DNA from: an uncultured Candidatus Babeliaceae bacterium | Lineage (GTDB): Bacteria; Babelota; Babeliae; Babelales; Babelaceae | Assembly (NCBI GenBank): GCA_963704655.1 | Contig: OY969927.1 | Span: 928,001-992,000, forward strand | Direction: 5' to 3' | Length of the DNA stretch: 64,000 nt | Shown here: positions 203 to 25,753 of the stretch, piece by piece | How the letters are laid out: each line of letters starts with the position of its first letter | Numbering within the stretch: the first letter of the stretch is position 1 | Program-made: the position numbers and the translations under genes | The notes under the pieces: generated by a model | What the model was told of the DNA's origin: nothing | Database searches by the model: none | The model's input: only the letters and a program-made list of their open reading frames with translations

Positions 203-1042
203 TTAAGCTTTTTTAAGAACAACAAAGCTTACACAGCTGTTATAAACTTCTGGGCTATATAAAATGTTGGCATCTCTATTTTTTCTTTGATATAAAACTG
301 CGCCTGTTTCTTCTGAATAGATAATTTTATTTTCATTATCAATAATTACGTTATCAACAGGTACAAAATATTCTTTTACAAGATTAAGAAAATCTACCAA
401 ACAGAACGACAAAGGAGATTTTTGAATTAAACCGAGCTTAACAACAGATTGCTCTAAATCATTCCAGTTATTATGCGGTGTAACTGGTACGTTTTTGTCC
501 CACTGTTCATCTAGCGTCAACACCAAAACGCCATCATCCTTAAGAACTCGACACGCCTCTTGAATTGATTTAATAAAGATTGGGTACGGTATATGCTCAA
601 AGGTGCTGATGCAATAAGCTACATCAAACTCTTTGTCTGCAAATTCGAGTTTTGACATATCCATATGCATGACATCATAATTTTTGCCATGTATGACTTC
701 TTTTTTTATTCTTCCATCTGCATCAATTGCAACATAATATGCTGGGTGCAATTTATCAACAACATGTTTATACCAGTTGTATTGTGATGGCAAACCTGCA
801 CCTAAATCGATAACTTTTTTATCTTTAACCGTTACTACTTTACTCACCCAATAATATTCAAACGGCCTACTGCCCCAATTTCCCCATAAAATCCCCTGTA
901 AAATTGGGTCTGATTTTTTTATTACGCCCAAATGCTTTTCTTCACGTTTATCTTTTAAATGTGCATTTGCTACTATTTCATTAAAACATGCTATCACTGC
1001 TAATAATTGAATCGCTACAAATAAATTTAATTTTTTAATCAT
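203..1042 (-). CDS. Class I SAM-dependent methyltransferase (Methyltransf_11-like) with signal peptide
   Basis: VIDLGAG motif I, FDVAYCISTFEHI, RVLKDDGVLVLT; hydrophobic N-terminus. Confidence 0.8.
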   Translation of the reverse strand: MIKKLNLFVAIQLLAVIACFNEIVANAHLKDKREEKHLGVIKKSDPILQGILWGNWGSRPFEYYWVSKVVTVKDKKVIDLGAGLPSQYNWYKHVVDKLHPAYYVAIDADGRIKKEVIHGKNYDVMHMDMSKLEFADKEFDVAYCISTFEHIPYPIFIKSIQEACRVLKDDGVLVLTLDEQWDKNVPVTPHNNWNDLEQSVVKLGLIQKSPLSFCLVDFLNLVKEYFVPVDNVIIDNENKIIYSEETGAVLYQRKNRDANILYSPEVYNSCVSFVVLKKA

Positions 1043-1255
1043 ATTATTCTTCCTTTTTATTTTTTAACAAAAAAATTGTACCTAACCACTACAGCGTCGT
1101 GCAAATCCTTCCTTCTAAAATGTTAATTCTCAGAGCATTATAGTTTAAAGTATTTTTTTTTCCAAATAAGCCGCATGTAATTAAAATTGCATCTTGCATA
1201 ATAAGAAAATAAGTTCTAAAATCTGTTCGATTTATTAAAACTTCTAAAGGAACGC

Positions 1256-2128
1256 ATGAAAACAATAAAAAATATTTTTGTTCTATTTTTTTTAACGTTA
1301 TTGCAACTACTTGAAGGCGCATCTTTAAATTTGGTTGTTTTTTCTCGCAACAGACCATTACAACTGTACACTTTCTTAGAATCATTTCTTGTTAATACCA
1401 CAGGCTGCCAGAGAATAAATATCATTTATCGAGCAGATACACCAGAATTTAAATTAGGCTACCAAATTGTTCAGCAAGACTTCCCGCAGGTGAATTTTAT
1501 TAAACAAAGAGGCACAGCAGACTTTAAAGAGCTCACATTAAAAGCTATCGACTTTGATGAAGAGGATTTTATTATCTTTGCTGTTGACGACATTATCGTA
1601 ACGCGTAAAATCGATTTCGATGAAATTACAAAGCACTTAGAAACATTTGATTGTAATGGCTTTTATCTTCGCCTCGGGCAGCATATTACTGAATGCTATA
1701 GTGAACACAGAGTCACCGGTACCCCGCCACTCAAAGAGATTGTTCCGGGGGTATTGTGCTGGAACTTTAAAAATGGCACAGGTGATTGGGGCTACCCAAA
1801 TACTGTTGATATGACCGTTTATAGAAAAAAGGACCTTAAGAAAATCTTTGTCATGTTACCATTTACCAACCCAAATACGCTTGAAGGCAACTGGGCCGGA
1901 TTGGCATCAAAAAATCCATTAGGGCTTTGTTACAAAGAAGCAGCTGTTGTTAACTGCCCCCTTAATATTGTACAGAGCACTTTTAATAATCGGCACAGCA
2001 ATGAATGCACCCCTGAAGAACTTTTAGAACTCTTTTTAGACGGTTATAAAATGGATATTGGCCCATTACAAAATATCAAAAACAAAGCGCCGCATATGGA
2101 TTATAAACCGACATTTATAAAAAGATGA
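1256..2128 (+). CDS. Putative GT-A fold glycosyltransferase with signal peptide
   Basis: LVVFSRNRPLQL, FAVDDIIV (DD motif); context in glycan cluster. Confidence 0.6.
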   Translation: MKTIKNIFVLFFLTLLQLLEGASLNLVVFSRNRPLQLYTFLESFLVNTTGCQRINIIYRADTPEFKLGYQIVQQDFPQVNFIKQRGTADFKELTLKAIDFDEEDFIIFAVDDIIVTRKIDFDEITKHLETFDCNGFYLRLGQHITECYSEHRVTGTPPLKEIVPGVLCWNFKNGTGDWGYPNTVDMTVYRKKDLKKIFVMLPFTNPNTLEGNWAGLASKNPLGLCYKEAAVVNCPLNIVQSTFNNRHSNECTPEELLELFLDGYKMDIGPLQNIKNKAPHMDYKPTFIKR

Positions 2129-2137
2129 GCAATAGCA

Positions 2138-2212
2138 CGCTAACCCTTCGACGAGCTCAGGATGAGCGAGCGTTTACTGCTGAGCGCTAGTCGAGGCATC
2201 AGGATGAGCGCC
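2138..2212 (+). repeat. Composite palindromic REP-like element (family A with nested unit)
   Basis: CGCTAACCCTTCGACGAGCTCAGGATGAGCG plus TGCTGAGCGCTAGTCGAGGCA; core recurs at 27846, 31708, 60961, 62087. Confidence 0.85.
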
Positions 2213-2252
2213 GGTTGGATAGCACAAAGTTTAAGTTGAAAAAGAGAGAGTA

Positions 2253-3077
2253 ATGAAACAAAATTATATTTTAAGTTTTTTAGCACTTACTATCTTGAGC
2301 ATTCAAGCCGTTATTGAGTGGGAGATCGTTATACCAACATATAATAACCAAGAATGGTGCATTAAAAATATAGAGTCGGTCGTTAAACAAACCTACCCAT
2401 ACTGGCACGCAACTATTATTGTAGACTGTGCAACAGATAAAACAGAAGAATTACTACGTGAATTTGTAGCAATGTATCATCTTGAACATAAAATAACTAT
2501 CATCGTTAATAAAGAAAACCAAGGTGCCCTAGCAAATATTTACTACGCAGTAACAGCATGCGCACCACATAAAGTTGTCGGCCTTCTTGATGGTGACGAT
2601 TGGCTCGCAGACAATGAGGTTTTAGAGTATCTTTCTGAGATATATGAAAAGAAAAATATCTGGATGACATTTGGTCAATTTGAACTTTGGCCAGAAAACC
2701 GCATTGGTCACTGTCGCCCATATCAAAAAGACATTATAAAAGAAAATAAATTCAGACTGCTCAACGGCCTATTGCCTTCACACTTTAGAACATTTTATGC
2801 GTGGCTCTTCCAATTAATTAAAAAAGAAGATTTGCTCTACAAAGGTAAATTCTTTCCGGTAACTTGGGACCTTGCCATGATGTTCCCTATGATCGAAATG
2901 GCCGGCAAGCACCATAAATGCATATCTAAAGTACTTTATATCTACAACATACAAAACCCGTTAAATGATTTTAAAATTCATACCAAACTTCAAACAAAAC
3001 TTAATTACTTAATTCGTTCAAAAAAAAGATATCAACCACTTAAAGAAAAACCAATTTTCTCAAGGGAAAAGTCATGA
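2253..3077 (+). CDS. Glycosyltransferase family 2 with signal peptide
   Basis: IVIPTYN, IIVDCATD, LLDGDDWL motifs. Confidence 0.85.
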   Translation: MKQNYILSFLALTILSIQAVIEWEIVIPTYNNQEWCIKNIESVVKQTYPYWHATIIVDCATDKTEELLREFVAMYHLEHKITIIVNKENQGALANIYYAVTACAPHKVVGLLDGDDWLADNEVLEYLSEIYEKKNIWMTFGQFELWPENRIGHCRPYQKDIIKENKFRLLNGLLPSHFRTFYAWLFQLIKKEDLLYKGKFFPVTWDLAMMFPMIEMAGKHHKCISKVLYIYNIQNPLNDFKIHTKLQTKLNYLIRSKKRYQPLKEKPIFSREKS

Positions 3078-3916
3078 AGAAAATACTAAAGACTCTATTG
3101 CTCTTTCTCATTGCTTGTCCATTGGCATTAAGCAGTTTTACTGAATTTGAAATGGTTATTCCAACTTATAATAATGAACAATGGTGCATTAAAAACCTTG
3201 AGGCGTTAGTGCAGCAAACCTACCCCCATTGGCATGCAACTATTATTGTAGATTGCGCAACAGACCGTACCGCAGAACTTCTAACTGAGTATATTATCAA
3301 TAATAATTTACAAGACCAAGTTACCCTTATTATTAACACAGAAAGATGTGGTGCGCTTGCAAACATTTATTATGCAGCAAAGGCCTGTCCACCACATAAA
3401 GTAATTTGCCTATATGATGGCGATGATTTTCTGGCAGATGATGAAGTTTTAGCTTATTACGCAGATCTTTATGACACGCATGATATCTGGGTAACCTATG
3501 GGCAATTCCAATTATGGCCCAGTGGTGTTCATGGCTGGTGCTCCCCATATTCACAGTATGTCATTAAAAATAATCTCTTTAGACAAGTACAGGATATACC
3601 ATCACACTTTAGAACCTTTTATGCATGGCTCTTTCATAAAATAGACAAAGGAGACCTTCTTTATCATGGTGATTTTTATAAAATGACCTGGGATATGGCT
3701 ATTATGTTTCCGCTTATGGAAATGGCTGCAGAACGTCACTATTTTGTTTCTAGAATCACGTATCTCTATAATGAGTCAAATCCTTTAAACGATCACAAAG
3801 TCGATAAAAAGTTACAACAAAAGCTTGGCAAGATTATTAGATCTAAGCCTTACTATCAACGCCTTGATTATAAATATGTTCCAAACAAGGGCAAACAAAA
3901 AATGAAGCGAGGGTAA
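3074..3916 (+). CDS. Glycosyltransferase family 2 with signal peptide (paralog of 2253..3077)
   Basis: MVIPTYN, YDGDDFL, shared PSHFRTFYAWLF; ATGA overlap. Confidence 0.85.
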   Translation: MKKILKTLLLFLIACPLALSSFTEFEMVIPTYNNEQWCIKNLEALVQQTYPHWHATIIVDCATDRTAELLTEYIINNNLQDQVTLIINTERCGALANIYYAAKACPPHKVICLYDGDDFLADDEVLAYYADLYDTHDIWVTYGQFQLWPSGVHGWCSPYSQYVIKNNLFRQVQDIPSHFRTFYAWLFHKIDKGDLLYHGDFYKMTWDMAIMFPLMEMAAERHYFVSRITYLYNESNPLNDHKVDKKLQQKLGKIIRSKPYYQRLDYKYVPNKGKQKMKRG

Positions 3917-3922: not shown

Positions 3923-4819
3923 ATGATCTACAAAACTGAATCACCTTTAATCACCACAACCGTGCACCCTGAGTGTCCGTCGCCGCTCGTGGTGAGCGAA
4001 GTCAAGACAGTGCGTTTCGCACCATCCATAGCGAAGACGGATGTATCGAAGGGCTGGTATGCGAATTTTTATCTCATACTATTTTTTATACTTGGCATTC
4101 AAAGCACCACTTTATCGGCTGCGCGTGTGGCATTATGCGCAGTAGCAACAGGGAGATACGATGTCTTTGCCGAACAACTTATAGAATCTGCACGACAATA
4201 TTTTTGTACCGAGCATGATGTGCATTATTTCATCTTTACCGATGGAACCATAACCCCAGCGCCAGATGTTACCACTGTTTTCCAAAAACGTCTTGGCTGG
4301 CCGCGTGACACGTTAATGCGTTTTTCAATTTACTTGCAGCACAAAGACCTTTTTGACTCATTTGATTACATTTACGCAACGGATGCAGACATGCTCTTTG
4401 TAGCGCCTGTTGATAGCGAAATTTTATCAGATTTGGTTGGAACTAAACACCCTGGTTATATAAAAAGGCGTGGCACCTATGAAGAAGGCAACAAACTATC
4501 AACAGCCTATGTTGCACGCCATGAAGGAAAATACTACTTTGCCGGCGGTTTTTATGGCGGTTCAAGAGAAAATTTCTTTAAGATGCTCCAGACACTGGTA
4601 GATAATATAGAAACAGATCTTCAAAAGAACTTTATAGCCGTCTGGCATGACGAAAGTCATATTAACCGCTATTTTATCGATAATCCACCAACAAAAATCT
4701 TATCTCCAGCCTACTGTTGTCCAGAAAACGTTAATCCAAACTACTATGACCCTGCAATTCTTCGCCTGAAAAAAAAGCTTATCGCACTGGACAAAAACCA
4801 TAGTGAATTAAGGAAATAA
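3923..4819 (+). CDS. Glycosyltransferase family 6 (ABO/alpha-1,3-Gal(NAc)T-like) with in-frame palindromic insertion at the N-terminus
   Basis: AVATGRY, YFIFTD, TDADM (DxD), YYFAGGFYGG, AVWHDESHINRY. Confidence 0.85.
   Translation: MIYKTESPLITTTVHPECPSPLVVSEVKTVRFAPSIAKTDVSKGWYANFYLILFFILGIQSTTLSAARVALCAVATGRYDVFAEQLIESARQYFCTEHDVHYFIFTDGTITPAPDVTTVFQKRLGWPRDTLMRFSIYLQHKDLFDSFDYIYATDADMLFVAPVDSEILSDLVGTKHPGYIKRRGTYEEGNKLSTAYVARHEGKYYFAGGFYGGSRENFFKMLQTLVDNIETDLQKNFIAVWHDESHINRYFIDNPPTKILSPAYCCPENVNPNYYDPAILRLKKKLIALDKNHSELRK
3960..4053 (+). repeat. Nested palindromic element inside the GT6 coding sequence
   Basis: CCGTGCACCCTGAGTG...GCGAAGACGGATGTATCGAAGGG shared with 23395-23475 and 30300-30412; inner module shared with 53944-54016. 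Confidence 0.85.
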
Positions 4820-4820: not shown

Positions 4821-5642
4821 ATGAAAAATATAACATTACCATCACTCTTATTTTTTACGCTTATTTTTTGTGCTGTTGCACCACTACAAGCCTACAAAAA
4901 ATTTGTCATACTCATTGCATCATATAATAATGAAAAATGGGCAGAAAAAAACATTGTTTCAGCTTTCCAAAACTACCCAGAAAACAATTACAGAATTATT
5001 TTTATTGATGATTGCTCAACAGATAGAACATTAAATGTAGTAGCCAAAACAGTAAAAAAACATAAAAAAGAACATTTAGTTACTATGATTCATAATGTCA
5101 AACGCCAAGGAGCTATGTATAACCACTGGTACGTTATTAATAACTATATTGCCGACGATGAAATTGTCATAATCCTAGATGGTGATGACCTCCTGGCAGG
5201 TGACGGCGTTTTAAAGTTCCTTGATGATATTTATACAAAAAATGATGTCTGGCTCACCTATGGCCAATTTAAACACATTTATAATAAAGATACGGGCTTT
5301 AATCGGGAAATGCCGGAACGTATTGTAAAAAATAACAGCTTCAGAGCATGGATACATGTTCCATCACATCTCAGAACTTTCTACGCAAAGCTTTATAAAA
5401 ATATAAAAATGGAAGACCTTATGCTTGACGGTCAATTTTTTGAAATGTGTGCTGATATGGCGACTATGATCCCCATGATAGAACAAGCCAGGGATCACTT
5501 TAAATTTATTTCAAAAATTTTGTATTTCTATAACGACAACAACCCAATAAGTGACCATAAAAAAAGCGTCGCGTTACAACAAAAGATCGACAAATATGTC
5601 AGAACATTACCCATATACCAACCATTAGAAAAGCTCTTTTAA
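4821..5642 (+). CDS. Glycosyltransferase family 2 with signal peptide
   Basis: ILIASYNN, FIDDCSTD, ILDGDDLL, PSHLRTFYA. Confidence 0.85.
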   Translation: MKNITLPSLLFFTLIFCAVAPLQAYKKFVILIASYNNEKWAEKNIVSAFQNYPENNYRIIFIDDCSTDRTLNVVAKTVKKHKKEHLVTMIHNVKRQGAMYNHWYVINNYIADDEIVIILDGDDLLAGDGVLKFLDDIYTKNDVWLTYGQFKHIYNKDTGFNREMPERIVKNNSFRAWIHVPSHLRTFYAKLYKNIKMEDLMLDGQFFEMCADMATMIPMIEQARDHFKFISKILYFYNDNNPISDHKKSVALQQKIDKYVRTLPIYQPLEKLF

Positions 5643-5657: not shown

Positions 5658-6371
5658 ATGATAAAAAATTATTATATTCCATTATTACTATTCGGTTTTA
5701 ATACCCTCAACAGCACAACAATATACGATTTACTTAAAAAAAATACGCTCGTTTTTGATATAGGTGCCCATGTTGGAGATAAAACTAAAAAATATCAGGA
5801 AATGGGCTGTAAAGTTGTATGCTTTGAACCAAATCCAAAAAATACAAAAATATTGAAACGGCTATTTAATAAGAATCCTCAGATCTCGATTGAAGAAACT
5901 GCTTTGGGCAATACAACAGGAACAATCCAATTAAATATATGCTCTGATGCAGATACTATATCAACATGTAATGAAAAATGGATGACCGGAAGATTTAATA
6001 AATATAAATGGGATAAAATTATTAGCGTACCTTTAACAACATTGGATGTCATGATTAAAAAACATGGGATACCAGATTTTTGTAAAATCGACGTCGAAGG
6101 TTTTGAAATTTCAGTCCTAGAAGGTCTTTCACAACCTATAAAATGCCTATCCTTTGAATTCACAAAAGAATTTATGGATGATGCAGTAAAATGTCTTAAT
6201 TACCTAAGAAAAATTGGGTTTGGATCATTTAATATAGCTTGCGGGGAATGTCCTGATTTTATTTTTTCAACTAATACTGATGATTATACGATTATGAATT
6301 ATATAAAGAAATCAAAAGATAAACTCTTATGGGGCGATATTTATGCATTTTCTAATAATATCTTATCTTAA
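5658..6371 (+). CDS. FkbM family methyltransferase
   Basis: FDIGAHVG, CFEPNP, KIDVEGFE; N-terminal leader. Confidence 0.9.
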   Translation: MIKNYYIPLLLFGFNTLNSTTIYDLLKKNTLVFDIGAHVGDKTKKYQEMGCKVVCFEPNPKNTKILKRLFNKNPQISIEETALGNTTGTIQLNICSDADTISTCNEKWMTGRFNKYKWDKIISVPLTTLDVMIKKHGIPDFCKIDVEGFEISVLEGLSQPIKCLSFEFTKEFMDDAVKCLNYLRKIGFGSFNIACGECPDFIFSTNTDDYTIMNYIKKSKDKLLWGDIYAFSNNILS

Positions 6372-6398: not shown

Positions 6399-7118
6399 AT
6401 GATTTTTTTATATTTATTTCTCTCTATTAACTTTTTATTTATCAATACTTCAGAATGCAAAATAATAAGTTTTAAAGAGCCCAGAAATGCTCTTAAAATT
6501 GTAAAAAGGTATCTTCCTGAAAATCCTATAATTTTGGAAGCAGGTTCTTTCGATGGAGAAGATACCCTCTACGTTGCAAAATTCTGGCCACAATCAACCA
6601 TTTATTCATTTGAACCAGTACCACAGATTTATAAAAAATTCTGCAGAAATACAAAAAATTGTTCACAAATTAAAGGATTTAATATAGCTCTTGGTGATTC
6701 ATGTGGTAAAAAATCTTTCTACGTTTCTTCAGATAAAAATTCACCACACATTCCGTCACAATCATCTTCATTATTACCACCAAAAGAACATTTAGATTAT
6801 GCGCCACATATTCAATTTAATAAAATCATTGAAGTTAATTGCTTCACGATTGATGCTTGGGCAGCAGAAAACAATATTAAAAACATCGATCTTATGTGGC
6901 TTGATATGCAAGGCAATGAACTCGAAACGCTGCAAGCTTCGCCAGAAATTTTAAAAACAGTTAAAGCTATAATTACCGAAGTAGAATTTGTTGAAGCATA
7001 TGAAGGTCAATCGCTCTATAGGGATGTTAAAGATTGGCTCGAAGCTCAAGGTTTTACCATGATCGCATTGAGCACAACAGCCGAATGGTTTGGCGATGCA
7101 ATATTTATCAGACTATAG
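6399..7118 (+). CDS. FkbM family methyltransferase
   Basis: LEAGSFDG, SFEPVP, WLDMQGNE, YEGQSLY; hydrophobic leader. Confidence 0.9.
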   Translation: MIFLYLFLSINFLFINTSECKIISFKEPRNALKIVKRYLPENPIILEAGSFDGEDTLYVAKFWPQSTIYSFEPVPQIYKKFCRNTKNCSQIKGFNIALGDSCGKKSFYVSSDKNSPHIPSQSSSLLPPKEHLDYAPHIQFNKIIEVNCFTIDAWAAENNIKNIDLMWLDMQGNELETLQASPEILKTVKAIITEVEFVEAYEGQSLYRDVKDWLEAQGFTMIALSTTAEWFGDAIFIRL

Positions 7119-7128: not shown

Positions 7129-8163
7129 ATGGTTAATAGATGTATAAATTCTAAATCATTTATCATTCTTCTAACTCTTACTAATTTTTTAACAGTAACT
7201 TTAGAAAGTATAAACCTAAATGCAGTAAGAAAATTTAAGAAAAAGTACAATGGAATTTCTATTTTTTATAAAAGTCCACACCAAGGCCTAACATCATCTG
7301 TAATTAGAGGACTTTCTAAATTGGAAATACCCTATAACATCAATCCAAATGATAAAAAGGACATTAAAGAGGTTTTCTTATGTCTTCAAGATGCAAGCCT
7401 CTTAAGAATGGGTATAAAACTTAAAGAAAAGAATCTTATAAAAAAATTAATAGTTGGTCCAAATATGTTTGCAAGAGCATATGAAGAAAATCACCTTCTT
7501 GCCAATAAAAATATAGACAAATATTTAGTCCCATCAGAGTGGACACGAATTGCCTGTACGCAAGATGAGCCCGCCGTGAAAGATACAATTAAAGTTTGGC
7601 CTGCAGGAGTTGATTCAGAATATTGGAAACCAGAACCAAAAAAAGAAACATTTCAAGTTCTTATATATTGGAAAACTGAGTCTCAAGAATTTTGCGATCA
7701 AGTAAAAAATATTCTTTTAAACTATGGTTGGCAGCCTATAGTTATAAAATATGACCACTATAACCATGAACACTATAAAAAGCTATTAAATAAAGTTAAA
7801 TTTGCAGTTTTTTTAAGTAAATCAGAATCACAAGGTCTTGCTCTTGCAGAATGTTGGTCCATGAATATTCCGACCCTAGTTTGGGATCCAAAAGAGCTTT
7901 TTTATTTGGGAAAACATTATGATCCGGTAACATCATGCCCTTTTTTAACAGAACAAACAGGAAAAAGCTGGAAAAAACTGAGCGAATTAGAAGAACTTTT
8001 AACAACAATGAAATCGTATTGGCCAGAATTTAATCCGCGAGAATGGGTTCTTGATAATATGACAGATGAGGTATCAGCAAGCTTATTGCTAGAAATTATA
8101 TATTCAAAAAAAAATAAAACAATTCATGAGGATATAGAAAATAACGAAACAATATCAAGTTAA
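7129..8163 (+). CDS. GT-B fold (GT4-like) glycosyltransferase
   Basis: SESQGLALAECWSMNIP resembles the GT4 E-x7-E motif; start set at ATG 7129 after AGGA. Confidence 0.7.
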   Translation: MVNRCINSKSFIILLTLTNFLTVTLESINLNAVRKFKKKYNGISIFYKSPHQGLTSSVIRGLSKLEIPYNINPNDKKDIKEVFLCLQDASLLRMGIKLKEKNLIKKLIVGPNMFARAYEENHLLANKNIDKYLVPSEWTRIACTQDEPAVKDTIKVWPAGVDSEYWKPEPKKETFQVLIYWKTESQEFCDQVKNILLNYGWQPIVIKYDHYNHEHYKKLLNKVKFAVFLSKSESQGLALAECWSMNIPTLVWDPKELFYLGKHYDPVTSCPFLTEQTGKSWKKLSELEELLTTMKSYWPEFNPREWVLDNMTDEVSASLLLEIIYSKKNKTIHEDIENNETISS

Positions 8164-8200: not shown

Positions 8201-9328
8201 ATGAACAAAAATCTTTTCTTACCCCTTTTAGTACTATTTTCAACGGCACTATGCAGTAATTATATACTTGAAAATAATGACCAGCCTATAGTATATATTT
8301 ATGCAAACAATAGCAAATACTCGGAGAGTGCTCTTGATTCATTAAATAAATTTAATATTAAATTTAAAGTGGTTGATACAATAAATAATACAAATGATCA
8401 AAATCTTTATATAATTTTTGATGTTTTTAATATAAATAAAAGCGACTTGCCAAAATACTATATATCTTATCAATCATTAGATTTAACCAATAATCAATTA
8501 ACCAACGAATATTTAGATAAACTCGCAAACTCGGTTGCCGTTTGGGACTATAGTAAAAAAAATATTCATAAATATAACTCTAGAATTTATAATTATTACT
8601 ATTTTCCCAAAAATTATAAAAATGCAGACCCTGTTATTTTACCTTGCTTCATGCCTGTTTCCACACTTTCCGACTATAAAAAACTTTTAATATACAGCAA
8701 TCAGAAAGACACAGATATTTCAAGTCACCTTCCAGCACTATTTTGTCATACCGTATTACAAAATCCAAAAATCATAGTTGAAGCTGGCGTTAGAGGCGGT
8801 GAATCAACTATACCTTTTAGAGAATCCCTAAAATTTTGCGATGCAAAACTTATCGGAATTGATATAGAAAAAACTGCAGCTAAACCCTACAGCGAAATAG
8901 AACAAGCAATTTTTTTACTAATGGATGATTTAGATTTTAATACTTATCTGAAAAACAGCCCATTTAATAACAAAAAAATGGATATAATTTTTATCGACAC
9001 AACACACGAATATGAACAAACAATAAAAGAGATAGCCTTATTTGAGCCTCTTTTAGCCGACAATGGCTTTTTATCATTCCACGATTCAAATGTTACACCA
9101 CTTGCCGATGCTGGCTACATTCGGCTCAATGGAACCTCAGATAAGGCCCATGGAAACCCACGCGGCGTTCCTCAAGCAATTAAGGAATATTTTTCTCTAG
9201 AATTCGATGAATATAATTATTTTAATTCAAATTTTATTAGAGATGGCGTTGTTTGGAATATAACTCATTATCCATTTTGCAATGGCTTAACAATTATTAA
9301 AAAAATAATACAAAATCCAAATGTCTGA
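8201..9328 (+). CDS. Two-domain protein with C-terminal Methyltransf_24-like methyltransferase
   Basis: VEAGVRGGEST, IFIDTTHEYE, FHDS; signal-like N-terminus. Confidence 0.75.
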   Translation: MNKNLFLPLLVLFSTALCSNYILENNDQPIVYIYANNSKYSESALDSLNKFNIKFKVVDTINNTNDQNLYIIFDVFNINKSDLPKYYISYQSLDLTNNQLTNEYLDKLANSVAVWDYSKKNIHKYNSRIYNYYYFPKNYKNADPVILPCFMPVSTLSDYKKLLIYSNQKDTDISSHLPALFCHTVLQNPKIIVEAGVRGGESTIPFRESLKFCDAKLIGIDIEKTAAKPYSEIEQAIFLLMDDLDFNTYLKNSPFNNKKMDIIFIDTTHEYEQTIKEIALFEPLLADNGFLSFHDSNVTPLADAGYIRLNGTSDKAHGNPRGVPQAIKEYFSLEFDEYNYFNSNFIRDGVVWNITHYPFCNGLTIIKKIIQNPNV

Positions 9329-13305: not shown

Positions 13306-13329
13306 TATTGATATTTTTTGAGACAAACT

Positions 13330-15928: not shown

Positions 15929-15956
15929 TTGACAATAAACAGTGCTATTCTATAGT
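15929..15956 (+). promoter_or_regulatory. Sigma70-like promoter
   Basis: TTGACA-16 nt-TATAGT in the divergent intergenic region; implies true start at ATG 15999. Confidence 0.45.
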
Positions 15957-15998
15957 AAAAAAAATTTGTTTTTTAATTTTAAAAACCTGAGTAGTTCA

Positions 15999-17227: not shown

Positions 17228-18334
17228 ATGGATACAAAAAAAATGTCGAATAATACCTTTAAATCAAAGAACATACTATTTATTTGTAATCTTTTTGTCA
17301 TTTTTGGCAGTTTTAATATATGCTTTGCAAAAAAAACAAAGATTGCTTTTTTTATCAATTTTCTTACTGTACGCGGTGTCGAAGTTGCTGTATATGATTA
17401 TGCAGATTGCAATGAGACTATTCTTGGCAACGAGTCCATTATCATAAATAATGCAGAGATTTTTAATGATCCAAAAAGTGGCTTTCATAATGATTACACA
17501 AATTCCGCAAGAGAAAAATTTGTCAAAAGGTTTGGAAATCGATTTTTTGATTGCGCCAATATGAAAGAAGCTGATGAAATTATGAAGAGAGAAAATGTAG
17601 ATATTTTTTATACTCAAAAATATGGCGTAATTGATGATAAGGTATCAAAGGTGTGTAAAAATGCAATACACGCAGTATTTACGGTTCAAGCACATGGCGA
17701 TGCTTATGCGTGCATTTCTGAATGGTTAAGTAAGGCCTATTCATCACATCATGCGCCCTATGTGCCCTATATGGTCCGTGTTGATGATACACATGAAACA
17801 CTCCATGACGAGCTAAAAATACCACGCGGAACCGTTATTTTTGGAAGACATGGTGGAAGTGGCACATTCAGTATCCCCTATGCGCGCGAGGCTGTTCAAG
17901 AAATTGCAAAAAAACATAAAGACTGGTATTTCCTCTTTCTTAATACTAATAAATTTTGCGATTTACCAAATGTTATTTTTTTACCAGCAACGGCGGATAT
18001 GGTATATAAGGCAAAATTTATTAATACTTGTGATGCGATGATACATGCAAGAGAAGAAGGCGAAACATTTGGCCTTGCTTGTGGAGAATTTTCAATGAAA
18101 AATAAGCCCGTTATAACATGTTCCAATATGGGTGATCGATGCCATATTGAAATTTTAGGTAACAAAGGGTTCTATTATAACAATAAGCAGGAGCTATTAA
18201 ACATTTTTGAATCGATAGCCAATAATATAGATAAAATTCGTAACCAAGACTGGGATTGTTACTCAAAAAAATATAATCCCGAAATTGTCATGAAAAAATT
18301 CGATGAAATTTTTATACAACCATTAATCAAATAA
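17228..18334 (+). CDS. GT-B (GT4-like) glycosyltransferase
   Basis: RGVEVAVYDYA, FGRHGG, DAMIHAREEGETFGLACGEF. Confidence 0.75.
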   Translation: MDTKKMSNNTFKSKNILFICNLFVIFGSFNICFAKKTKIAFFINFLTVRGVEVAVYDYADCNETILGNESIIINNAEIFNDPKSGFHNDYTNSAREKFVKRFGNRFFDCANMKEADEIMKRENVDIFYTQKYGVIDDKVSKVCKNAIHAVFTVQAHGDAYACISEWLSKAYSSHHAPYVPYMVRVDDTHETLHDELKIPRGTVIFGRHGGSGTFSIPYAREAVQEIAKKHKDWYFLFLNTNKFCDLPNVIFLPATADMVYKAKFINTCDAMIHAREEGETFGLACGEFSMKNKPVITCSNMGDRCHIEILGNKGFYYNNKQELLNIFESIANNIDKIRNQDWDCYSKKYNPEIVMKKFDEIFIQPLIK

Positions 18335-18430: not shown

Positions 18431-19315
18431 GTGCAAAAAAAGAGATATTTTTTATTGCTGCTATTTCATATAATTGCTTTTGGAAATAATGTAAAAATTA
18501 TTCCCAAGCCTATAAATGGCAGAAATATAATGAGGACGCTAGTTAAACACAAGCCACCAAGAATTTATCTTCTATCTTTTCCAAAATCAGGAAATACATG
18601 GATGCGCTATTGCATTGAGCTCCTTACAGAAAGACCTACAGCAAGCTTTTCATTGAAACCCGATGCCCAAGAGTTACCAATAAGCTATACTTTTGGGCAT
18701 AAGATAGACCTGTCAAAAAAGCCTATCTGGAAAGCGCATAGAGAGTCTGAATTTAATTTCGCAGGTTATAAGTATAGCCCCCGACGAGATTTATTAATTA
18801 TTGCAGTACGTAATCCTAAGGAAGCTATTGCTCGATGGATGACAACATCAAATGGGGCTGATTTATTATCATTCACAGGGCTTATGCATTTTCAATCTTA
18901 TTTTAATGTCCTTAGACTTTTTGATAGCTGGGCCCCAGACAAAAGAATTTTAATTTATTATGAGGATCTCATAAGCGATCCAAGAGAAACTCTTGAAAAA
19001 TTAGTTAATTTTTTAAATGATCCAAAAAATAAATTCGATGCCTTTTTTGATGAATATGAAAAACACAAAGAACGAGGGCTTAAGTTTTACGAATACAATG
19101 GGGGCAGCCAAAGCCAAGGGAACGACCTTCTTTATCATTCACGTAAAATGTCTGCCGTTGACCGTAAAAATATAGACCAATTTATTAAAGAAAAATATAA
19201 ATATTTATGGGAAAAATACCTTGAAAATAGATATTCAGAAGAAACCTTAGAAGAAAATAATTTTTATCGAGCACAAATTCTACATAACGTATACAGAAGT
19301 TTTATCCTTGATTGA
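18431..19315 (+). CDS. PAPS-dependent sulfotransferase with signal peptide
   Basis: LLSFPKSGNTWMR (5'-PSB loop), VRNPKEA (3'-PB), YYEDL. Confidence 0.85.
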   Translation: MQKKRYFLLLLFHIIAFGNNVKIIPKPINGRNIMRTLVKHKPPRIYLLSFPKSGNTWMRYCIELLTERPTASFSLKPDAQELPISYTFGHKIDLSKKPIWKAHRESEFNFAGYKYSPRRDLLIIAVRNPKEAIARWMTTSNGADLLSFTGLMHFQSYFNVLRLFDSWAPDKRILIYYEDLISDPRETLEKLVNFLNDPKNKFDAFFDEYEKHKERGLKFYEYNGGSQSQGNDLLYHSRKMSAVDRKNIDQFIKEKYKYLWEKYLENRYSEETLEENNFYRAQILHNVYRSFILD

Positions 19316-19332: not shown

Positions 19333-20355
19333 CTAAATTGAAATTCTACTTAGGCATTGAACTTCCTCTAAATATTCTCTATATCCAAGTATCAACTCTT
19401 TTAATTGGTTCCAAACCCTAGGATTAAAACTATTGATAAACTCAGGTATTGAAGATCCTTCTAAATAATCAAGAATCGTATTCTTTCTTTCATCCTTTAA
19501 TTCTTGAATATCGGCACCATTATCAAGAAGAATTCGAGCCTTTTCTAAAAGACCCAGATTGTTATACTCTAAGCTACCATACTTAACAATATCGTGCAGA
19601 GCTGTCCCATTAGAAGCCGTTTCATTGACATCATAATGAAGATCTTTAATAAAATAATGTAATAAAGCAGGCTCCTTGTTTACATCCAGAACAATATCAT
19701 GCAAATAAAGTCTTTGAGGGTTTAATTGAGCACCATGATCAACTAATAATTTTGCAAACTTTACCGTTTTAGCTGTATCCAAAACTAAATCACAAGATTC
19801 TCCAGAAAGAAAATATTTATTCGTATCTGCTTTACGACGTAAAAGAGCCTTTGCATAATCATAATGCTTTTGGTTAGTATTAGTTGAATCTTTTGCAGCA
19901 AATGCAAGGGGAAAAATATTTTGTATATTCATCACATTAACAAGATTAGGGTCTGCGCCAGCTTCAACAAGAGCCACAACCCAATATGGGTCTGCGGAAT
20001 CAAATGAAAAATTAGACCCCTTCTGTAGAAAGAGCCTTAATACATCATTTTTAATTTCTTGGTCTTTATCTCTGAGAGCCAACGGTATAACATGCATTAA
20101 TATGTTTTTTTCAAAAGTATCTATTCCTTCATTAGGAAGTAATTCTGCTGGGAAATCATCGATAATTTTTTGAGGATTATTATTTAAAGCTAAGTTAGAT
20201 GCAACGGACAGATTTTGTCTAAAAACATAATTTATTTGACCTAATTCACGCGAGAAGAGTATTTGCATGGAATTATTATTATTATCTCTAACGGAATTCA
20301 AGTCGAATATAAAGAAGAAAAACAAAAATAAGGCTGTAAGTTGGATTTTTATCAT
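19333..20355 (-). CDS. Secreted ankyrin-repeat protein
   Basis: LVEAGADPN, LLRRKADTN, LVDHGA, GTALH, LLDNGADI; leader peptide. Confidence 0.75.
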   Translation of the reverse strand: MIKIQLTALFLFFFFIFDLNSVRDNNNNSMQILFSRELGQINYVFRQNLSVASNLALNNNPQKIIDDFPAELLPNEGIDTFEKNILMHVIPLALRDKDQEIKNDVLRLFLQKGSNFSFDSADPYWVVALVEAGADPNLVNVMNIQNIFPLAFAAKDSTNTNQKHYDYAKALLRRKADTNKYFLSGESCDLVLDTAKTVKFAKLLVDHGAQLNPQRLYLHDIVLDVNKEPALLHYFIKDLHYDVNETASNGTALHDIVKYGSLEYNNLGLLEKARILLDNGADIQELKDERKNTILDYLEGSSIPEFINSFNPRVWNQLKELILGYREYLEEVQCLSRISI

Positions 20356-20467: not shown

Positions 20468-21214
20468 TTAAATTTTCAAAATAAAACATAAACTACCATA
20501 AAAATGTATAGATTTTATGTGCTTTTGATAATAATTAAGGTTATTTTTAATATGAGCTGAACATAGCTTTCTATCAGCATAACCAGTAGTTGCACCAATA
20601 AAATTTACATCATCAACCAATGATTGCAGGAATCGTATTGTTGATTTTTCACTCGCCACTGGGTTGCCAACTGAGCCTAAACCACCAAATGATTCCCAAT
20701 ATGATGTATGTAAATCTTCTATAATATAAATACCGCCACTTTTAACATAAGGAAAAAGCACCTTAAAGCTTGTAATTTGCTGGTTCATAGTATGCCCACC
20801 ATCATCAAGGATAACATCAAAACGCCCTCCTACATCTTGAATAAATTTTAGCAAATCAGCTTCTTCGGACTGATCACAGATATAAAAATTACATCGCGAT
20901 GAAAGACCTTGTGAATATTTTTTAAAAAAATCTTCTTCTTTATCTATAAAAAATAAAGTTGCATTCGGAAAATATTGATCCCACATTCTTGCCGACGCAC
21001 CAACAAAAAAACCGATTTCTAAAAATTTCAACGGCTTGTCTCTTAACTGAACAAAATAGGACTCATAAATAGATAAATAATCATGTGATGAAAATTTATC
21101 AGTTTGGCAGTCTTTACCAATTTCAGACAAGCTTTTAAGTGCAAATAGACCATCTTTAACCATGAAAATCTGAAAAAGTAAAATTGCCGTAAGTAATTTA
21201 TTTTTTACATACAT
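20468..21214 (-). CDS. Class I SAM O-methyltransferase (sugar O-methyltransferase/MycE-like)
   Basis: TDK..HDY, LEIG, DQS, LDDGGH, GGIYIIEDLHTSYW. Confidence 0.8.
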   Translation of the reverse strand: MYVKNKLLTAILLFQIFMVKDGLFALKSLSEIGKDCQTDKFSSHDYLSIYESYFVQLRDKPLKFLEIGFFVGASARMWDQYFPNATLFFIDKEEDFFKKYSQGLSSRCNFYICDQSEEADLLKFIQDVGGRFDVILDDGGHTMNQQITSFKVLFPYVKSGGIYIIEDLHTSYWESFGGLGSVGNPVASEKSTIRFLQSLVDDVNFIGATTGYADRKLCSAHIKNNLNYYQKHIKSIHFYGSLCFILKI

Positions 21215-21681: not shown

Positions 21682-22581
21682 ATGAAAAATATCTATTCCA
21701 TACTACTAAGCATTATCATACTTAATGAAATTAGTGCAAAAGTATTATTAATAACTCACAGCTATAATCGCCCGGACTTTATAGAACTCAATGCCCACTT
21801 ATTTAAAACCTTCCTGCAAGATGATTATGAATACGTTGTCTTTAACGATGCACATCAACAAAATATGAAAGAACAGATAGAACAAACCTGTAAAAAACTT
21901 GGTATTCGCTGTTTTAGGGTGCATCAAAATTTACACAATAGGCCAAATAATTCACCCGGCCATAGGCACATAGACTGCATTCAATACTCGCTTGAAAAAC
22001 TCGGTTATGATTTTGACGGAATTGTCGCCTTTGTTGATTCTGATATGTTTTTAATTAAACCATTTAGTATAGAAAAATATCTACAAGGATATGATCTTGC
22101 CGGCGACCTTGAAGGCCGCTCCAATGAACGAATAAGAATACGATACTTATCGCCTAATTTAACATTTATGGACATGCGTACATTGCCCAATAAAAGAACT
22201 ATTTCATTTGAAGGCGGCATGGTAGAGGGTCTAGCCTGTGACGTTGGCGGACATACGTACTATTATCTCAAAAGCAATCCCGGAATCAAAAGCAAATTCT
22301 TTGGACATATACATATGGGGGCAATGAAAGTTGCCGATGGCTGTAAAAAATGCACTAACTTAGATTGCCCATCATGCTTAAAAAAATTACAACAAATTGG
22401 GCTTGATGAAGAAATCATTAAATTTGTTCATGATATACCAGAAGATAAAGATGTTGAATTCTTTCTTGATCATCACTTTCTACACTATAGAAGTGGCTCT
22501 AATTGGAACGGAAAACCGGCAGAATACCACCAAAGAAAAACACGTACATTAAGTACATTAATTAGTGATATAAGTAAATAA
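21682..22581 (+). CDS. Putative glycosyltransferase (paralog family 3 of 3)
   Basis: RPDFIEL, YVVFNDA, VDSDMF, FLHYRSGSNW; ATG 21682 follows AAGGAG. Confidence 0.6.
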   Translation: MKNIYSILLSIIILNEISAKVLLITHSYNRPDFIELNAHLFKTFLQDDYEYVVFNDAHQQNMKEQIEQTCKKLGIRCFRVHQNLHNRPNNSPGHRHIDCIQYSLEKLGYDFDGIVAFVDSDMFLIKPFSIEKYLQGYDLAGDLEGRSNERIRIRYLSPNLTFMDMRTLPNKRTISFEGGMVEGLACDVGGHTYYYLKSNPGIKSKFFGHIHMGAMKVADGCKKCTNLDCPSCLKKLQQIGLDEEIIKFVHDIPEDKDVEFFLDHHFLHYRSGSNWNGKPAEYHQRKTRTLSTLISDISK

Positions 22582-22614
22582 TTAGTTGAAGAAAGAAAAA
22601 ATAAATGAAACTAA

Positions 22615-22650
22615 GGAGCATGCTTTAAAAATCTATAAAAAGCATGCTCC
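22615..22650. terminator. Hairpin between convergent genes
   Basis: GGAGCATGCTTT...AAAGCATGCTCC. Confidence 0.55.
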
Positions 22651-22684
22651 CAACGCTCAAGATCGTCTGTTCAGGACTATGTTA

Positions 22685-23387: not shown

Positions 23388-23394
23388 ACATTCG

Positions 23395-23475
23395 CCCCTT
23401 CGATACACCCGTCTTCGCCTCGGGTTTACTCCTGAGCTTGTCGAAGGGCTACGTCGGGCACTCAGGGTGCACGGG
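23395..23475 (-). repeat. Triple-nested palindromic element
   Basis: Reverse strand CCGTGCACCCTGAGTG[CCCGACGTAGC[CCTTCGACAAGCTCAGG..]GGCGAAGACGGG]TGTATCGAAGGGG. Confidence 0.85.
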
Positions 23476-23580
23476 TGTGGGTAATAAATTAAATTAAGCT
23501 ATATTAATTGAAAATATAATTAAATAAAAAAGTGCTGCATACCATTTAAGCAGTGCAGCACCCAACAAAATCAAAATTAA

Positions 23581-24699
23581 TTATGAAAAATTTTCTTGCC
23601 TCGTGCCGCTCAGCAATTTTAAATCCTCACTCACCATAATTTTTACTAATTCCTGAAATGTCGTCGAAGATTTCCACCCCAAAGCCTTTCTGGCTTTAGT
23701 TGAATCGCCTAAAACATAGTCTACTTCTGATGGACGAAAATATTGAGGGTCAATTTTAACTAAAGTTGCCCCAGTTGCTTGATCAAAGCCAACTTCATCT
23801 GTACCCGTGCCCTGCCAGCATATTGTAATACCAACTTCTTTAAAAGCTAACTCAACAAATTCTCTAACAGTGTGCGCTTGCCCGGTGGCAATAACATAAT
23901 CGTCGGCTGTATCTTACTGAAGTATGGACCACATAGCTTCAACATAGTCTCTTGCATAGCCCCAATCGCGCTTTGCATCAAGATTACCTAGATAAAGGGT
24001 CTCGCCGATTCCTAGCTTATATCTTGCAACAGCCAAAGAAATTTTTCGTGTTACAAAAGTTTCTCCGCGCAAAGGTGATTCGTGGTTAAATAAAATACCA
24101 CTACAAGCAAAGTGGCCGTAAGCTTCTCTATAATTTACCGTAATACAATGGGCATATAACTTGGCGACACCATAAGGTGAGCGTGGATAAAAGGGGGTGT
24201 TTTCCGTTTGGGGTGTTTCTCGAACCTTGCCAAACATTTCACTAGAAGAGGCCTGGTAAAATCTAATTTTTTTCTTTGCATCAGTGACATGTATCGCTTC
24301 CAATATCCGCAAGGTACCTAAAGCATTAATATCTGCAGTCTGTTCAGGGGTATCAAAAGATACTCTCACATGGCTTTGCGCAGCTAAATTATAGATCTCA
24401 TCAGGATCAATTTGCTGGATAAGACCAATAATACTGCCCAAGTCGGCCAAGTCACCGTCATGCAAAAAGAAATTATTAAAATTAACAGATTTTTTTAATA
24501 AAAAATTAAGTCTTTTAGTGGTTGATGCTGAAGAAGCACGCTTAACGCCATGAACTTCGTACCCTTTTTCAAGTAAAAAATCTGCAAGATATGCACCATC
24601 TTGCCCTGTAACACCAAAAATAAGAGCCTTTTTCTGGTAAGCAGAATTATAAACAGGTAATAATAAAAATACAAACCCTATAACTAATAGTCTTTTCAT
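23581..24699 (-). pseudogene. gmd: GDP-mannose 4,6-dehydratase paralog with signal peptide, interrupted by in-frame TAA
   Basis: [37 protein letters not shown] at 23914-23916 then the same frame continues DTADDYVIATG...YFRPSEVD...LGW to 23581. Confidence 0.85.
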
Positions 24700-24757
24700 C
24701 AATTATACTCTTCCATTTTTACTCTATAGTTTCTGTTATTTAAAATAATTTTTTACT

Positions 24758-25753
24758 TTAAACAATGTCACTCAAAAGGTTTAATAAAACTTCGACTCTA
24801 TTTAAATAAGTATGTTTATTTTTAACAAAATCCATTAGATTCAGGAGCTCTTGCAACTCCAGCTCATTCACTTTTTTAAGGCCGTCATAAAAAAGCTGTT
24901 TAGTGTCTGGATTGTACACAATTTTTTGCTCAAACAAATTATAAACTGTTTCGGAATTGGTTATACCAAACTGCCCATAACTAATATTTTTAAAAATTCT
25001 ACACGGTATATAGCCTTCATCAAATTGCCATTTACCCACAATAGTTGGCGCAAGAACTGAATTGAAAATTAATTTCTGGTTTTCTTCTGGCGAGATATGC
25101 ATAAGATGCGAAAACTTCATACCATTTTTTTGACATGCGCGTTTAAATGGCTCAATTTGTTCAACATTGCCATGAAATCCGCCACCTAATGTTCCTATCC
25201 AATAAACGGTATTATCTTTAGATTTACCCCAATTTTTGATAACTTTTTCTTCCATTGCATCAATTTGATAGGGCAGTAAATCTGTTGCCCATGGCATATA
25301 GACAATTTTTCCTGATTTTGATGTATATATACATTCATCAATTTTTTGGATATCGTCATGCTGACCCTTGCATCTATTGGTATACACCTGAAAGACGATA
25401 GCATGGCCGGCGTCTAAAAGAGATTTATATTTTGCCATGGGGCAGTTATGCAATAAATAATAGCTTGAGGCAACAATCGGCATTTTTTTATCTGCCTGAC
25501 CTTCTGTTAAGAACAAACAGTTTTCAAAGTCAAAACCACGAACATCGTCATTATTGTCAAACCAATAGGTTTCGTAACCCATACTTTTAAAGGCTTTATA
25601 AAAAGCGTCATGTATATATGAATGAGTATGACTGTGGAGCTTGTGACCCCATATAACTACTTTTTTGAAATTAAGCGCCGCATGCGCATCGAGTTGGAAT
25701 AATGATAAAAATAGCATCAAAGAAAAAAAATAAAATTTAAAAAATTGCTTCAT
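24758..25753 (-). CDS. Putative glycosyltransferase-like protein with signal peptide
   Basis: VVIWGHKLHSHTHSYIH, PWATDLLP, YIPCRIFKNISYG, HTYLNR. Confidence 0.55.
   Translation of the reverse strand: MKQFFKFYFFSLMLFLSLFQLDAHAALNFKKVVIWGHKLHSHTHSYIHDAFYKAFKSMGYETYWFDNNDDVRGFDFENCLFLTEGQADKKMPIVASSYYLLHNCPMAKYKSLLDAGHAIVFQVYTNRCKGQHDDIQKIDECIYTSKSGKIVYMPWATDLLPYQIDAMEEKVIKNWGKSKDNTVYWIGTLGGGFHGNVEQIEPFKRACQKNGMKFSHLMHISPEENQKLIFNSVLAPTIVGKWQFDEGYIPCRIFKNISYGQFGITNSETVYNLFEQKIVYNPDTKQLFYDGLKKVNELELQELLNLMDFVKNKHTYLNRVEVLLNLLSDIV

Follow-up and report, generated by a model that had tools for sequence, protein, structure and literature searches.

Signal-peptide-like leaders on the glycan-synthesis enzymes of a Babeliaceae gene island

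Gene content and leaders of the island

The window analysed here is a stretch of 64,000 nucleotides (positions 928,001 to 992,000 of contig OY969927.1, assembly GCA_963704655.1) from an uncultured Candidatus Babeliaceae bacterium. The genome is a single contig of 1,298,077 bp with 38% G+C, and close homologues carry the database names "Candidatus Dependentiae bacterium" and "Candidatus Babeliales bacterium". Among the sequencing runs listed for it none is of RNA, and the DNA runs contain it at small shares. The window opens with an island of glycan-synthesis genes (window positions 203-25753), which contains 26 open reading frames (ORFs) of at least 150 amino acids (aa). According to a hydrophobicity scan, 25 of these possess an N-terminal leader, i.e. 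an apolar stretch 10-19 residues long (median 13) that begins soon after a Met, with the sole exception of unk_22685. Of the 25 leaders, 24 have an n-region with net positive charge, and 21 have a site of small residues at (-3,-1) in our own rule-based test. The first-pass annotation, made from the sequence alone, had claimed leaders on nearly every enzyme of this block and had named manC-gmd-fcl as a leaderless internal control. Both claims hold: none of these three proteins has an N-terminal hydrophobic segment, their best 10-residue Kyte-Doolittle means being at most 1.58 and not N-terminal. In the same window leaders of this style are found on two periplasmic proteins, the chaperone Skp/OmpH and a binding protein, and are lacking from AlaRS, Pth, TsaD and a HIT protein.

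Sec signal peptides have a hydrophobic core of about 7-15 residues, type II uncleaved anchors a span of about 18-22. The block leaders fall short of the anchor length, and they combine positive n-regions, short cores and small residues at -3 and -1 in a genome with one signal peptidase I gene (Peptidase_S26, E 1.5e-34). Only GT2 c (run of 19) and GT2 b (run of 17) approach the length of a membrane span. The Gly_transf_sug (DXD) glycosyltransferase adjoining fcl (25944-26831, minus strand; Pfam E 3.3e-10) has a 20-residue apolar N-terminal segment with an n-charge of +1 and +2 over the next 15 residues, which resembles an anchor more than a signal peptide. A strict 15-residue hydrophobicity scan caught 16 of 28 block ORFs, missed short leaders and was replaced by a per-gene table. 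A rule-based signal-peptide scorer gave low-score false calls on fcl and manC via Rossmann strands and serves as a rough guide only; a "Met after leader" rule ([AGSC]-M-[DENQ]) was dropped as uninformative, with 51 of 577 leader-bearing ORFs and 0 of 23 in the block.

Pfam assigns to the block five S-adenosylmethionine (SAM) methyltransferases, three GT2 and one GT6 glycosyltransferase, one RXYLT1_C, one Sulfotransfer_1 and one ankyrin-repeat protein, besides three nucleotide-sugar short-chain dehydrogenases/reductases (SDRs), namely an NRS/ER-type epimerase-reductase, a nucleoside diphosphate (NDP)-glucose 4,6-dehydratase and a GDP-mannose 4,6-dehydratase (Gmd). Eleven ORFs lack a Pfam family. 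The first-pass calls for all of these SDRs, the methyltransferases, the sulfotransferase, GT2 and GT6 are borne out, and three further labels are not: "GT4" matches Glycos_transf_1 with 13.5 bits, under the Pfam cut-off of 26.4, "GT-D-like" reaches 15.1 bits, likewise under its cut-off, and "GT47" at 15942 gives a sub-threshold 19.9 bits, with RXYLT1_C passing instead.

The block starts on the minus strand with a Methyltransf_11 SAM methyltransferase (203-1042; Pfam E 9.4e-11), whose leader MIKKLNLFVAIQLLAVIACFNEIVANA has an apolar run of 14, an n-charge of +2 and (-3,-1) sites. On the plus strand follow the leader-bearing unk_1256 (1256-2128), without Pfam match and with five leader-bearing homologues in islands of relatives, and the leader-bearing GT2 a (2253-3077; PF00535 E 7.1e-19, domain from residue 25) and GT2 b (3074-3916; PF00535 E 1.6e-14), the latter with a lipobox-like LIAC identified by eye. 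GT6 (3923-4819, plus strand; PF03414 E 1.1e-40) has its hydrophobic run at residues 49-59, 48 residues from the sole ATG, and the 45-residue stretch before the run holds an in-frame GC-rich dispersed repeat (3946-4029). The distance would be due to insertion of this repeat; the GT6 proteins of two relatives carry ordinary leaders. Next on the plus strand are GT2 c (4821-5642; PF00535 E 5.7e-15), with no alternative start 3' of its leader, and the FkbM methyltransferases a (5658-6371; PF05050 E 1.5e-18) and b (6399-7118; PF05050 E 1.1e-21), both leader-bearing. The leader of FkbM a is weak, and those of the orthologous pair in G150, a genome of the same genus, are stronger. Also on the plus strand lie unk_7090 (7129-8163), with a sub-threshold GT4-type match and a leader counted from M14, and a leader-bearing Methyltransf_24 / CmcI-like methyltransferase (8201-9328; Pfam E 1.2e-11).

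Two leader-bearing paralogues with the motif YNRPDFIE (9377-10270 and 10275-11183, plus strand) precede the two rhamnose-type SDRs described below; a third copy, unk_21535 (21682-22581), has its leader from an internal Met. Beyond the SDRs three leader-bearing ORFs, with syntenic leader-bearing orthologues in G150, occupy 13318-14289 and 14307-14969 (plus strand, no Pfam family) and 15031-15903 (minus strand, the sub-threshold GT-D-like match). The RXYLT1_C / GT47-like glycosyltransferase (15942-17219, plus strand; PF24785 37 bits, cut-off 27) has its hydrophobic run at residues 41-51; like those of unk_7090 and unk_21535, its leader begins at an internal Met. It is followed by a leader-bearing protein without Pfam family (17228-18334, plus strand), by the Sulfotransfer_1 sulfotransferase of the phosphoadenosine phosphosulfate (PAPS) type (18431-19315, plus strand; Pfam E 1.4e-9), whose leader requires a GTG start, and on the minus strand by a leader-bearing ankyrin-repeat protein (19333-20355; Pfam Ank E 4.8e-6), a leader-bearing Methyltransf_24 methyltransferase (20468-21214; Pfam E 5.4e-7), the leader-bearing Gmd (23580-24702) and the leader-bearing unk_24758 (24758-25753), a conserved family (WGHKLHSHTHSYIH) that is possibly a glycosyltransferase. 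The leaderless manC-gmd-fcl genes of GDP-fucose synthesis occupy 26834-30094 (minus strand), their Pfam domains starting at residues 7-19, and a multi-pass PMT-like GT-C glycosyltransferase lies at 31166-32656 (plus strand; PF02366 E 1.4e-6, 28.5 bits, cut-off 22.7). Housekeeping genes are found beyond about 33 kb.

The 9377/10275/21682 family has no Pfam or PDB sequence match, and a DSD motif is invariant in 13 of its sequences. An AlphaFold2 model (pLDDT 87.6) has top Foldseek matches that are all GT-A enzymes (E 2e-6 to 7e-5, TM 0.31-0.44), and the family is predicted to have a GT-A glycosyltransferase-like fold with a DxD-type motif. The model of the unk_24758 family is unusable (pLDDT 54). 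PDB profile searches gave nothing meaningful for either family, and the ESM Atlas offered weak leads only: 13% of one cluster is labelled GT2, and automatic naming yields "glycosyltransferase family protein".

The window also contains dispersed GC-rich repeats, about 45-90 bp long, whose copies are both direct and inverted. A first set lies at 2138-2186, 27847-27895, 31710-31758, 60963-61011 and 62089-62137, and further copies at 3946-4029, 23392-23488, 26884-26940, 30370-30413, 43935-44085 and 53944-53989. Several occur in frame, in the 5' end of GT6, the 3' ends of gmd and fcl and the PMT-like ORF, adding peptide stretches, in a manner that resembles the palindromic elements inserted in Rickettsia genes. 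A different repetitive feature is found at 56930-59660, where a 36-nt (12-residue) repeat forms arrays in three tandem paralogous ORFs (57104-57910, 58010-58747 and 58852-59637, minus strand); two copies share 98% identity over 300 nt.

Conservation of the leaders and their addition to catalytic domains

The protein encoded at 11222-12169 (plus strand) is assigned to the NRS/ER-type 3,5-epimerase/4-reductases (NDP-L-rhamnose synthases) by full-length similarity and a GxxGxxG dinucleotide-binding motif, read as GGKTGWVG. It matches PDB entries 4qqr ("3,5-epimerase/4-reductase", E 1.5e-109, query residues 23-301) and 7jid ("UDP-L-Rhamnose Synthase", E 5.7e-65) and has a leader of 18-22 residues. 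Among 151 sampled Babeliales (Dependentiae) genomes NRS/ER is present in 18, at 20 loci, and all 20 possess a hydrophobic leader directly before the Rossmann strand, usually ending in SYA, LSA, ALA or IDA; an ATG lies upstream of the leader in 19. A pre-sequence of 12-45 residues is found in 111 of the 120 best database homologues, the exceptions being tandem or fused forms of greater length (P0003-6, P0019) and a few truncated entries. These 111 leaders have a median length of 22 aa and a median apolar run of 12 (10th-90th percentile 9-16), as against 17 for 440 internal transmembrane segments of the genome; 96 have a positive N-terminus and 102 a (-3,-1) site.

A search of 1.84 billion cluster representatives places these enzymes among their wider relatives. 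From the best 150 NRS/ER relatives, 117 were kept, those aligned over less than 240 residues or starting past query residue 35 being dropped. The set comprises 66 leaderless sequences, 31 N-terminal fusions, mostly with a dehydratase domain as in eukaryotic RHM (seven relabelled by eye), 14 short non-hydrophobic extensions and six sequences with leaders. Eukaryotic and viral relatives lack a leader, and viral contigs yielded one relative, 36% identical. In a quick tree five of the six leader-bearing relatives and the query share one branch (SH-aLRT 94), which also includes one short, apparently leaderless row; the sixth (P0243), which looks partial, stands elsewhere. The tree is consistent with a single gain of the leader in the Dependentiae clade.

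The neighbouring NDP-glucose 4,6-dehydratase (12184-13305, plus strand; GDP_Man_Dehyd E 9.1e-70, PDB 6bi4 E 3.8e-71) has a leader of about 28 residues. It matches the NDP-hexose 4,6-dehydratase profile at family level over its full length, its TIGR01181 score of 306 bits lying under the cut-off of 365. Orthologues of at least 55% identity carry leaders in 10 cases out of 13; in the other three, which come from a single family, the protein begins at the Rossmann strand, and hardly any of the more distant SDR paralogues has a leader.

The leader-bearing Gmd (Pfam E 3.1e-108) is 62% identical to the leaderless gmd of the same genome. It contains an in-frame TAA at codon 263 (23914-23916), after which the frame is intact for about 110 more codons, to about 23580; the stop stems either from recent nonsense mutation or from an error in sequencing. 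Of the 151 genomes, 71 contain a Gmd. Its 29 best loci with the motif divide into 14 leader-bearing and 15 leaderless, three of the former being ambiguous through an internal Met at the canonical start, and several genomes, including the source genome, hold both forms. Leader conservation in related genomes, a point raised by the first-pass annotation, is thus complete for NRS/ER and partial for the dehydratase and Gmd.

Three fusion genes with a single leader were found in islands of relatives: GT2 with Gmd (673 aa; G056, L061:1774-3795), NRS/ER with a GT-A family domain (607 aa; G063, L052:12716-14539) and GT2 with GT6, GT2 coming first (477-aa ORF; G150, L048:13481-14914). Such fusions would tie the sugar-nucleotide enzymes to the compartment of the transferases.

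The leaders are additions to the catalytic domains, as the first-pass annotation had supposed: plant and mimivirus NRS/ER align from query residue 23-24 and dehydratase structures from residue 26-34, and the leaderless dehydratase and Gmd orthologues lack the added part. Its proviso that true starts might map downstream of the leaders falls away for six enzymes (NRS/ER, 4,6-dehydratase, Gmd, GT2 c, FkbM a and unk_24758), in which no downstream ATG, GTG or TTG leaves the catalytic domain intact. The next ATG of the dehydratase is codon 51, past the GxxGxxG motif, and NRS/ER has no alternative start that drops the hydrophobic core. In 13 syntenic orthologue pairs with G150 the leaders are 29% identical (86/297) and the mature parts 71% (2568/3611), with hydrophobicity retained in 12 of the 13 leaders. 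Sequence turnover with kept hydrophobicity is, on these alignments, the signal-peptide mode of evolution, and the leaders look real and selected. Gene finders sometimes begin such genes past the leader and so hide export tags: the public call for the sulfotransferase (P0121, 261 aa) begins at the internal ATG M34, without the leader, and about 21 of 27 sulfotransferase homologues have hydrophobic N-termini by eye.

Wider island and supply of co-substrates

The island is larger than first noted, including also a Wzx-like flippase, a polyprenyl-phosphate-type GT2 and the PMT-like GT-C, and extends from genome position 924166 to window position 32656. Left of the window lie the flippase (PF01943), a second Sulfotransfer_1-like gene, which is leader-bearing, and a gene for a leaderless 443-aa protein with a GT2 domain like that of AglJ, ArnC and dolichyl-phosphate hexose transferases. 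Also situated there is a pair of adjoining genes for AAA ATPases with signal-peptide-like leaders (genome 915138-917153, L045:138-2153, minus strand; Pfam E about 1e-30), apparently another ATP-dependent enzyme type that is exported. Outside the island the genome codes for a GalU-like enzyme, recognised by eye through its motif, and for two more SDRs, one of them GalE-like, all three leaderless; of its seven PF01370 genes three have leaders, all in the island. A histone-deacetylase-domain protein (genome 1198229-1199260, L113; Pfam E 5.1e-59) bears an N-terminal leader, as do WD40 proteins elsewhere in the genome. MraY is present, and a WecA-like gene scores 80 bits, under its cut-off; a profile search of the genome found no Bac_transf and no Wzy_C.

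Two secretins are encoded in the genome. The text of PMC4378268 credits Babela with no secretion system other than type II, and PMC4776705 describes Babeliales as lacking most lipopolysaccharide (LPS) genes. The genome further contains two TLC-type nucleotide transporters, which imply that host nucleotides reach the periplasm; the same may be supposed of NDP-sugars, NADPH, SAM and PAPS. No APS kinase above cut-off and no SAM synthetase C-terminal domain were found in the genome, so that PAPS and SAM would be host-derived.

Site of action and comparison with known systems

The leaders make it very probable that the island enzymes are exported across the inner membrane. That the leaders are cleavable Sec-type signal peptides, and that the enzymes act in the periplasm or at the cell surface, extending and decorating a glycan, is a reading to which we give a probability of roughly 0.5; cleavage, site of action, source of the co-substrates and acceptor are, like export, what we infer from the leaders and their context. 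What favours this site is the neighbourhood of flippase, polyprenyl-phosphate GT2 and GT-C, together with the fusions, the lack of LPS and the rationale of a long sequential line of enzymes. A cytoplasmic and membrane-bound set (GalU, ManC-Gmd-Fcl, the polyprenyl-phosphate-type GT2, the Wzx-like flippase and the PMT-like GT-C) would prime the glycan. About 25 glycan enzymes would cross the inner membrane, comprising glycosyltransferases, five methyltransferases, sulfotransferases and the nucleotide-sugar-converting SDRs, and would add rhamnose, methyl and sulfate groups in the periplasm or at the surface. Host NDP-sugars, NADPH, SAM and PAPS would reach the periplasm as host ATP must for the nucleotide importers. 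The first-pass annotation had proposed export of a complete glycosylation, methylation and sulfation line into the host. The exported line gains from leaders that are added, order-wide and of signal-peptide geometry, and "complete" does not stand, since the leader-bearing Gmd has a stop and the GalU-like, GalE-like, ManC, Gmd and Fcl enzymes are leaderless. Judged by its leaders, the pathway is divided between two compartments, not wholly exported, and the flippase, polyprenyl-phosphate-type GT2 and GT-C point at least equally to a glycan on the bacterium's own envelope.

A bolder form of periplasmic action, which we put forward only tentatively, is that the LPS-less periplasm works like a Golgi, with exported enzymes acting on host-siphoned donors and NDP-sugars being interconverted outside the cytoplasm. 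A polyprenyl-phosphate sugar would serve the PMT-type GT-C to prime glycans on exported proteins or lipids, with possible acceptors in the giant surface fibres whose genes lie elsewhere in the genome, and about twenty Sec-exported glycosyltransferases, methyltransferases and sulfotransferases would extend the glycans. Nucleotide sugars, NADPH, SAM and PAPS would be siphoned from the host through the outer membrane, and NDP-glucose would be converted to NDP-rhamnose, and GDP-mannose to its 4-keto-6-deoxy derivative, outside the cytoplasm.

Several observations weigh against periplasmic action. The genome-wide background of leaders is very high, 33-48% by crude scans: 420 of 1269 crude ORFs pass a strict criterion and 577 of 1194 a lenient one, a set that includes start-call artefacts. 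Even at a background of 48%, 25 of 26 corresponds to a binomial tail of about 1e-7, operon genes not being independent. The background agrees with the signal peptides reported on 44% of Chromulinavorax coding sequences (PMC6561590), so that leaders are themselves ordinary here and the unusual feature is which enzymes bear them. A strict (-3,-1) site is absent from 4 of the 25 leaders, and a few leaders hang on non-ATG or internal starts. Several mature N-termini are Lys-rich, e.g. KNIQ after VFS and KKTK after CFA, and Lys-rich mature starts hamper Sec export in E. coli. A search for nucleotide-sugar transporters returned a single sub-threshold TPT/EamA match (25.8 bits), and no porin was identified. 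UDP-Glc and GDP-Fuc are made in the cytoplasm by leaderless enzymes, so that host supply is not forced for the sugars. The ankyrin protein of the island and the leaders of the WD40 and histone-deacetylase-domain proteins fit delivery to the host better than retention in the periplasm. The histone-deacetylase-domain protein was met among 20 leader-bearing ORFs drawn at random, of which 12 lack a Pfam family.

Delivery to the host is accordingly a rival in its own right: type II secretion would release the enzymes into the vacuole lumen or the host cytosol, where they would modify host molecules or build a matrix with host co-substrates. We regard this as possible though doubtful. The signal-peptide ankyrins and AAA/Ulp1 proteins of Babela have been argued to be secreted into the amoeba, type II being the sole system described in that text (PMC4378268), and the two secretins, the leader-bearing ankyrin protein inside the island, the two AAA ATPases beside it and the histone-deacetylase-domain and WD40 proteins elsewhere are all in keeping with such a route. 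GT6, RXYLT1-like, Sulfotransfer_1 and COLGALT1-like GT-A folds are moreover typical of eukaryotic secretory-pathway glycosylation. However, the host cytosol would dilute a line of about 25 successive enzymes, the flippase, polyprenyl-phosphate-type GT2 and GT-C would act on bacterial membrane carriers, and the fusions of NDP-sugar enzymes with glycosyltransferases suggest substrate channelling in a poor compartment; type II substrates cannot be predicted from sequence.

The leaders could also keep the enzymes inside, as uncleaved anchors on the cytoplasmic face of the inner membrane, with conventional assembly from cytoplasmic NDP-sugars and a product flipped by Wzx. The cytoplasmic synthesis of UDP-Glc and GDP-Fuc, the Wzx-like flippase and the WecA-like gene would suit this arrangement, some leaders have more positive charge after than before them (unk_7090 +4 vs +2, NRS/ER +2 vs +1), and the glycosyltransferase adjoining fcl has a true 20-residue segment. 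We nevertheless consider it improbable, and the type II anchors that the first-pass annotation offered as its alternative fit poorly: a median apolar run of 12-13, against 17 in the transmembrane segments of the genome, is too short for a stable span, the positive N-termini (96/111) favour an N-in orientation with the C-terminal domain translocated, and small residues at -3 and -1 are kept in 102 of 111. Anchoring offers no obvious gain for soluble SDRs, yet leader-bearing and leaderless Gmd coexist in several genomes. Least probable is that the leaders are untranslated or functionless, either as start-codon artefacts in AT-rich DNA or as relics that came with genes of eukaryotes or viruses. 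A crude ORF caller does create false leaders, as in a GlmU-like ORF (genome 747252-748769, L107) whose apparent leader comes from the choice of the longest ORF and whose internal Met at residue 19 is likely the true start, a caution on every crude leader count; the sulfotransferase call that begins downstream and the three Gmd loci with an internal Met right at the canonical start are further cases in point. Against this stand the six enzymes without a downstream start that spares the catalytic domain, the persistence of leaders in different families of the order despite the turnover of their sequence, the lack of leaders in eukaryotic and viral NRS/ER, and the grouping of leader-bearing NRS/ER clusters in the quick tree. 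Should periplasmic or surface action be the true reading, the paired Gmd copies and single-leader fusions would provide a simple marker of it.

Among known systems, the eukaryotic Golgi bears glycosyltransferases, sulfotransferases and some SDRs (in plant NDP-sugar interconversion) with N-terminal targeting segments, the cytosol supplying NDP-sugars and PAPS. Its enzymes are held in the membrane in type II orientation by anchors of about 20 residues that are not cleaved. The island has the GT6, RXYLT1-like and Sulfotransfer_1 families in common with it, whereas its cores of 10-19 residues have signal-peptidase-type ends, the proposed site is the periplasm of a bacterium, for which no nucleotide-sugar transporter could be identified. 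With the UDP-L-rhamnose pathway of plants and giant viruses (4qqr, 7jid and the dehydratase 6vlo) the island shares an NRS/ER whose mature part aligns over its full length, and the adjoining 4,6-dehydratase matches the two-enzyme rhamnose route. The plant and viral NRS/ER are leaderless and located in the cytosol or viral factory, unlike the leader-bearing enzymes here, and the dehydratase is closest to bacterial dTDP-glucose 4,6-dehydratases (6bi4), so that the nucleotide may be UDP or dTDP.

Classical Wzx/Wzy or ABC surface-glycan loci resemble the island in combining NDP-sugar genes, glycosyltransferases, methyltransferases and a Wzx-like flippase. Those loci confine every NDP-sugar step to the cytoplasm and rely on lipid-linked donors alone outside it; in the island, leaders are borne by three SDRs and almost every glycosyltransferase, and no Wzy_C/WaaL or Bac_transf was found in the genome. 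To our knowledge, bacterial steps that need nucleotide sugars, SAM or PAPS are generally taken as cytoplasmic, with only lipid-linked donors past the inner membrane. If periplasmic or surface action is correct, the island would be an order-wide exception to this rule, enabled by an intracellular life in which the metabolites of a eukaryote surround the parasite. This would account for how the LPS-less Babeliales could clothe themselves or remodel their niche, and glycan building would join the host resources tapped by energy parasites.

The closest published parallel found is Chlamydia trachomatis, which is described as secreting glycogen enzymes into the inclusion lumen, where they are fed by host UDP-glucose (Gehre et al. 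2016, PMC4829429). There, too, an obligate intracellular bacterium puts normally cytoplasmic sugar-polymer enzymes outside its own cytoplasm. The chlamydial case involves type 3 secretion, glycogen as the only polymer and a host transporter co-opted to supply the sugar, unlike the Sec-type leaders seen here, from sequence data, on about 25 enzymes including SDRs, methyltransferases and sulfotransferases. Within the Dependentiae, signal peptides are reported for 79 of the 126 ankyrins of Babela, and type II secretion has been put forward as the export route (Pagnier 2015, PMC4378268). These host-directed proteins, treated also by Deeg 2019 (PMC6561590), belong to the same lineage and carry the same kind of leader as the island enzymes; the passages concerned in the two papers discuss ankyrins, proteases, nucleases and AAA/Ulp1 proteins and do not mention glycosyltransferases or sugar-nucleotide enzymes by term, whereas the island encodes glycan enzymes. 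No description of export-tagged glycan or sugar-nucleotide enzymes in Dependentiae was found in the literature, the supplementary tables of the genome papers lying outside this scope. To the proteins described so far the window adds nucleotide-sugar enzymes, order-wide conservation of their leaders, paired Gmd copies, fusion genes and a mixed cytoplasmic and putatively exported layout.

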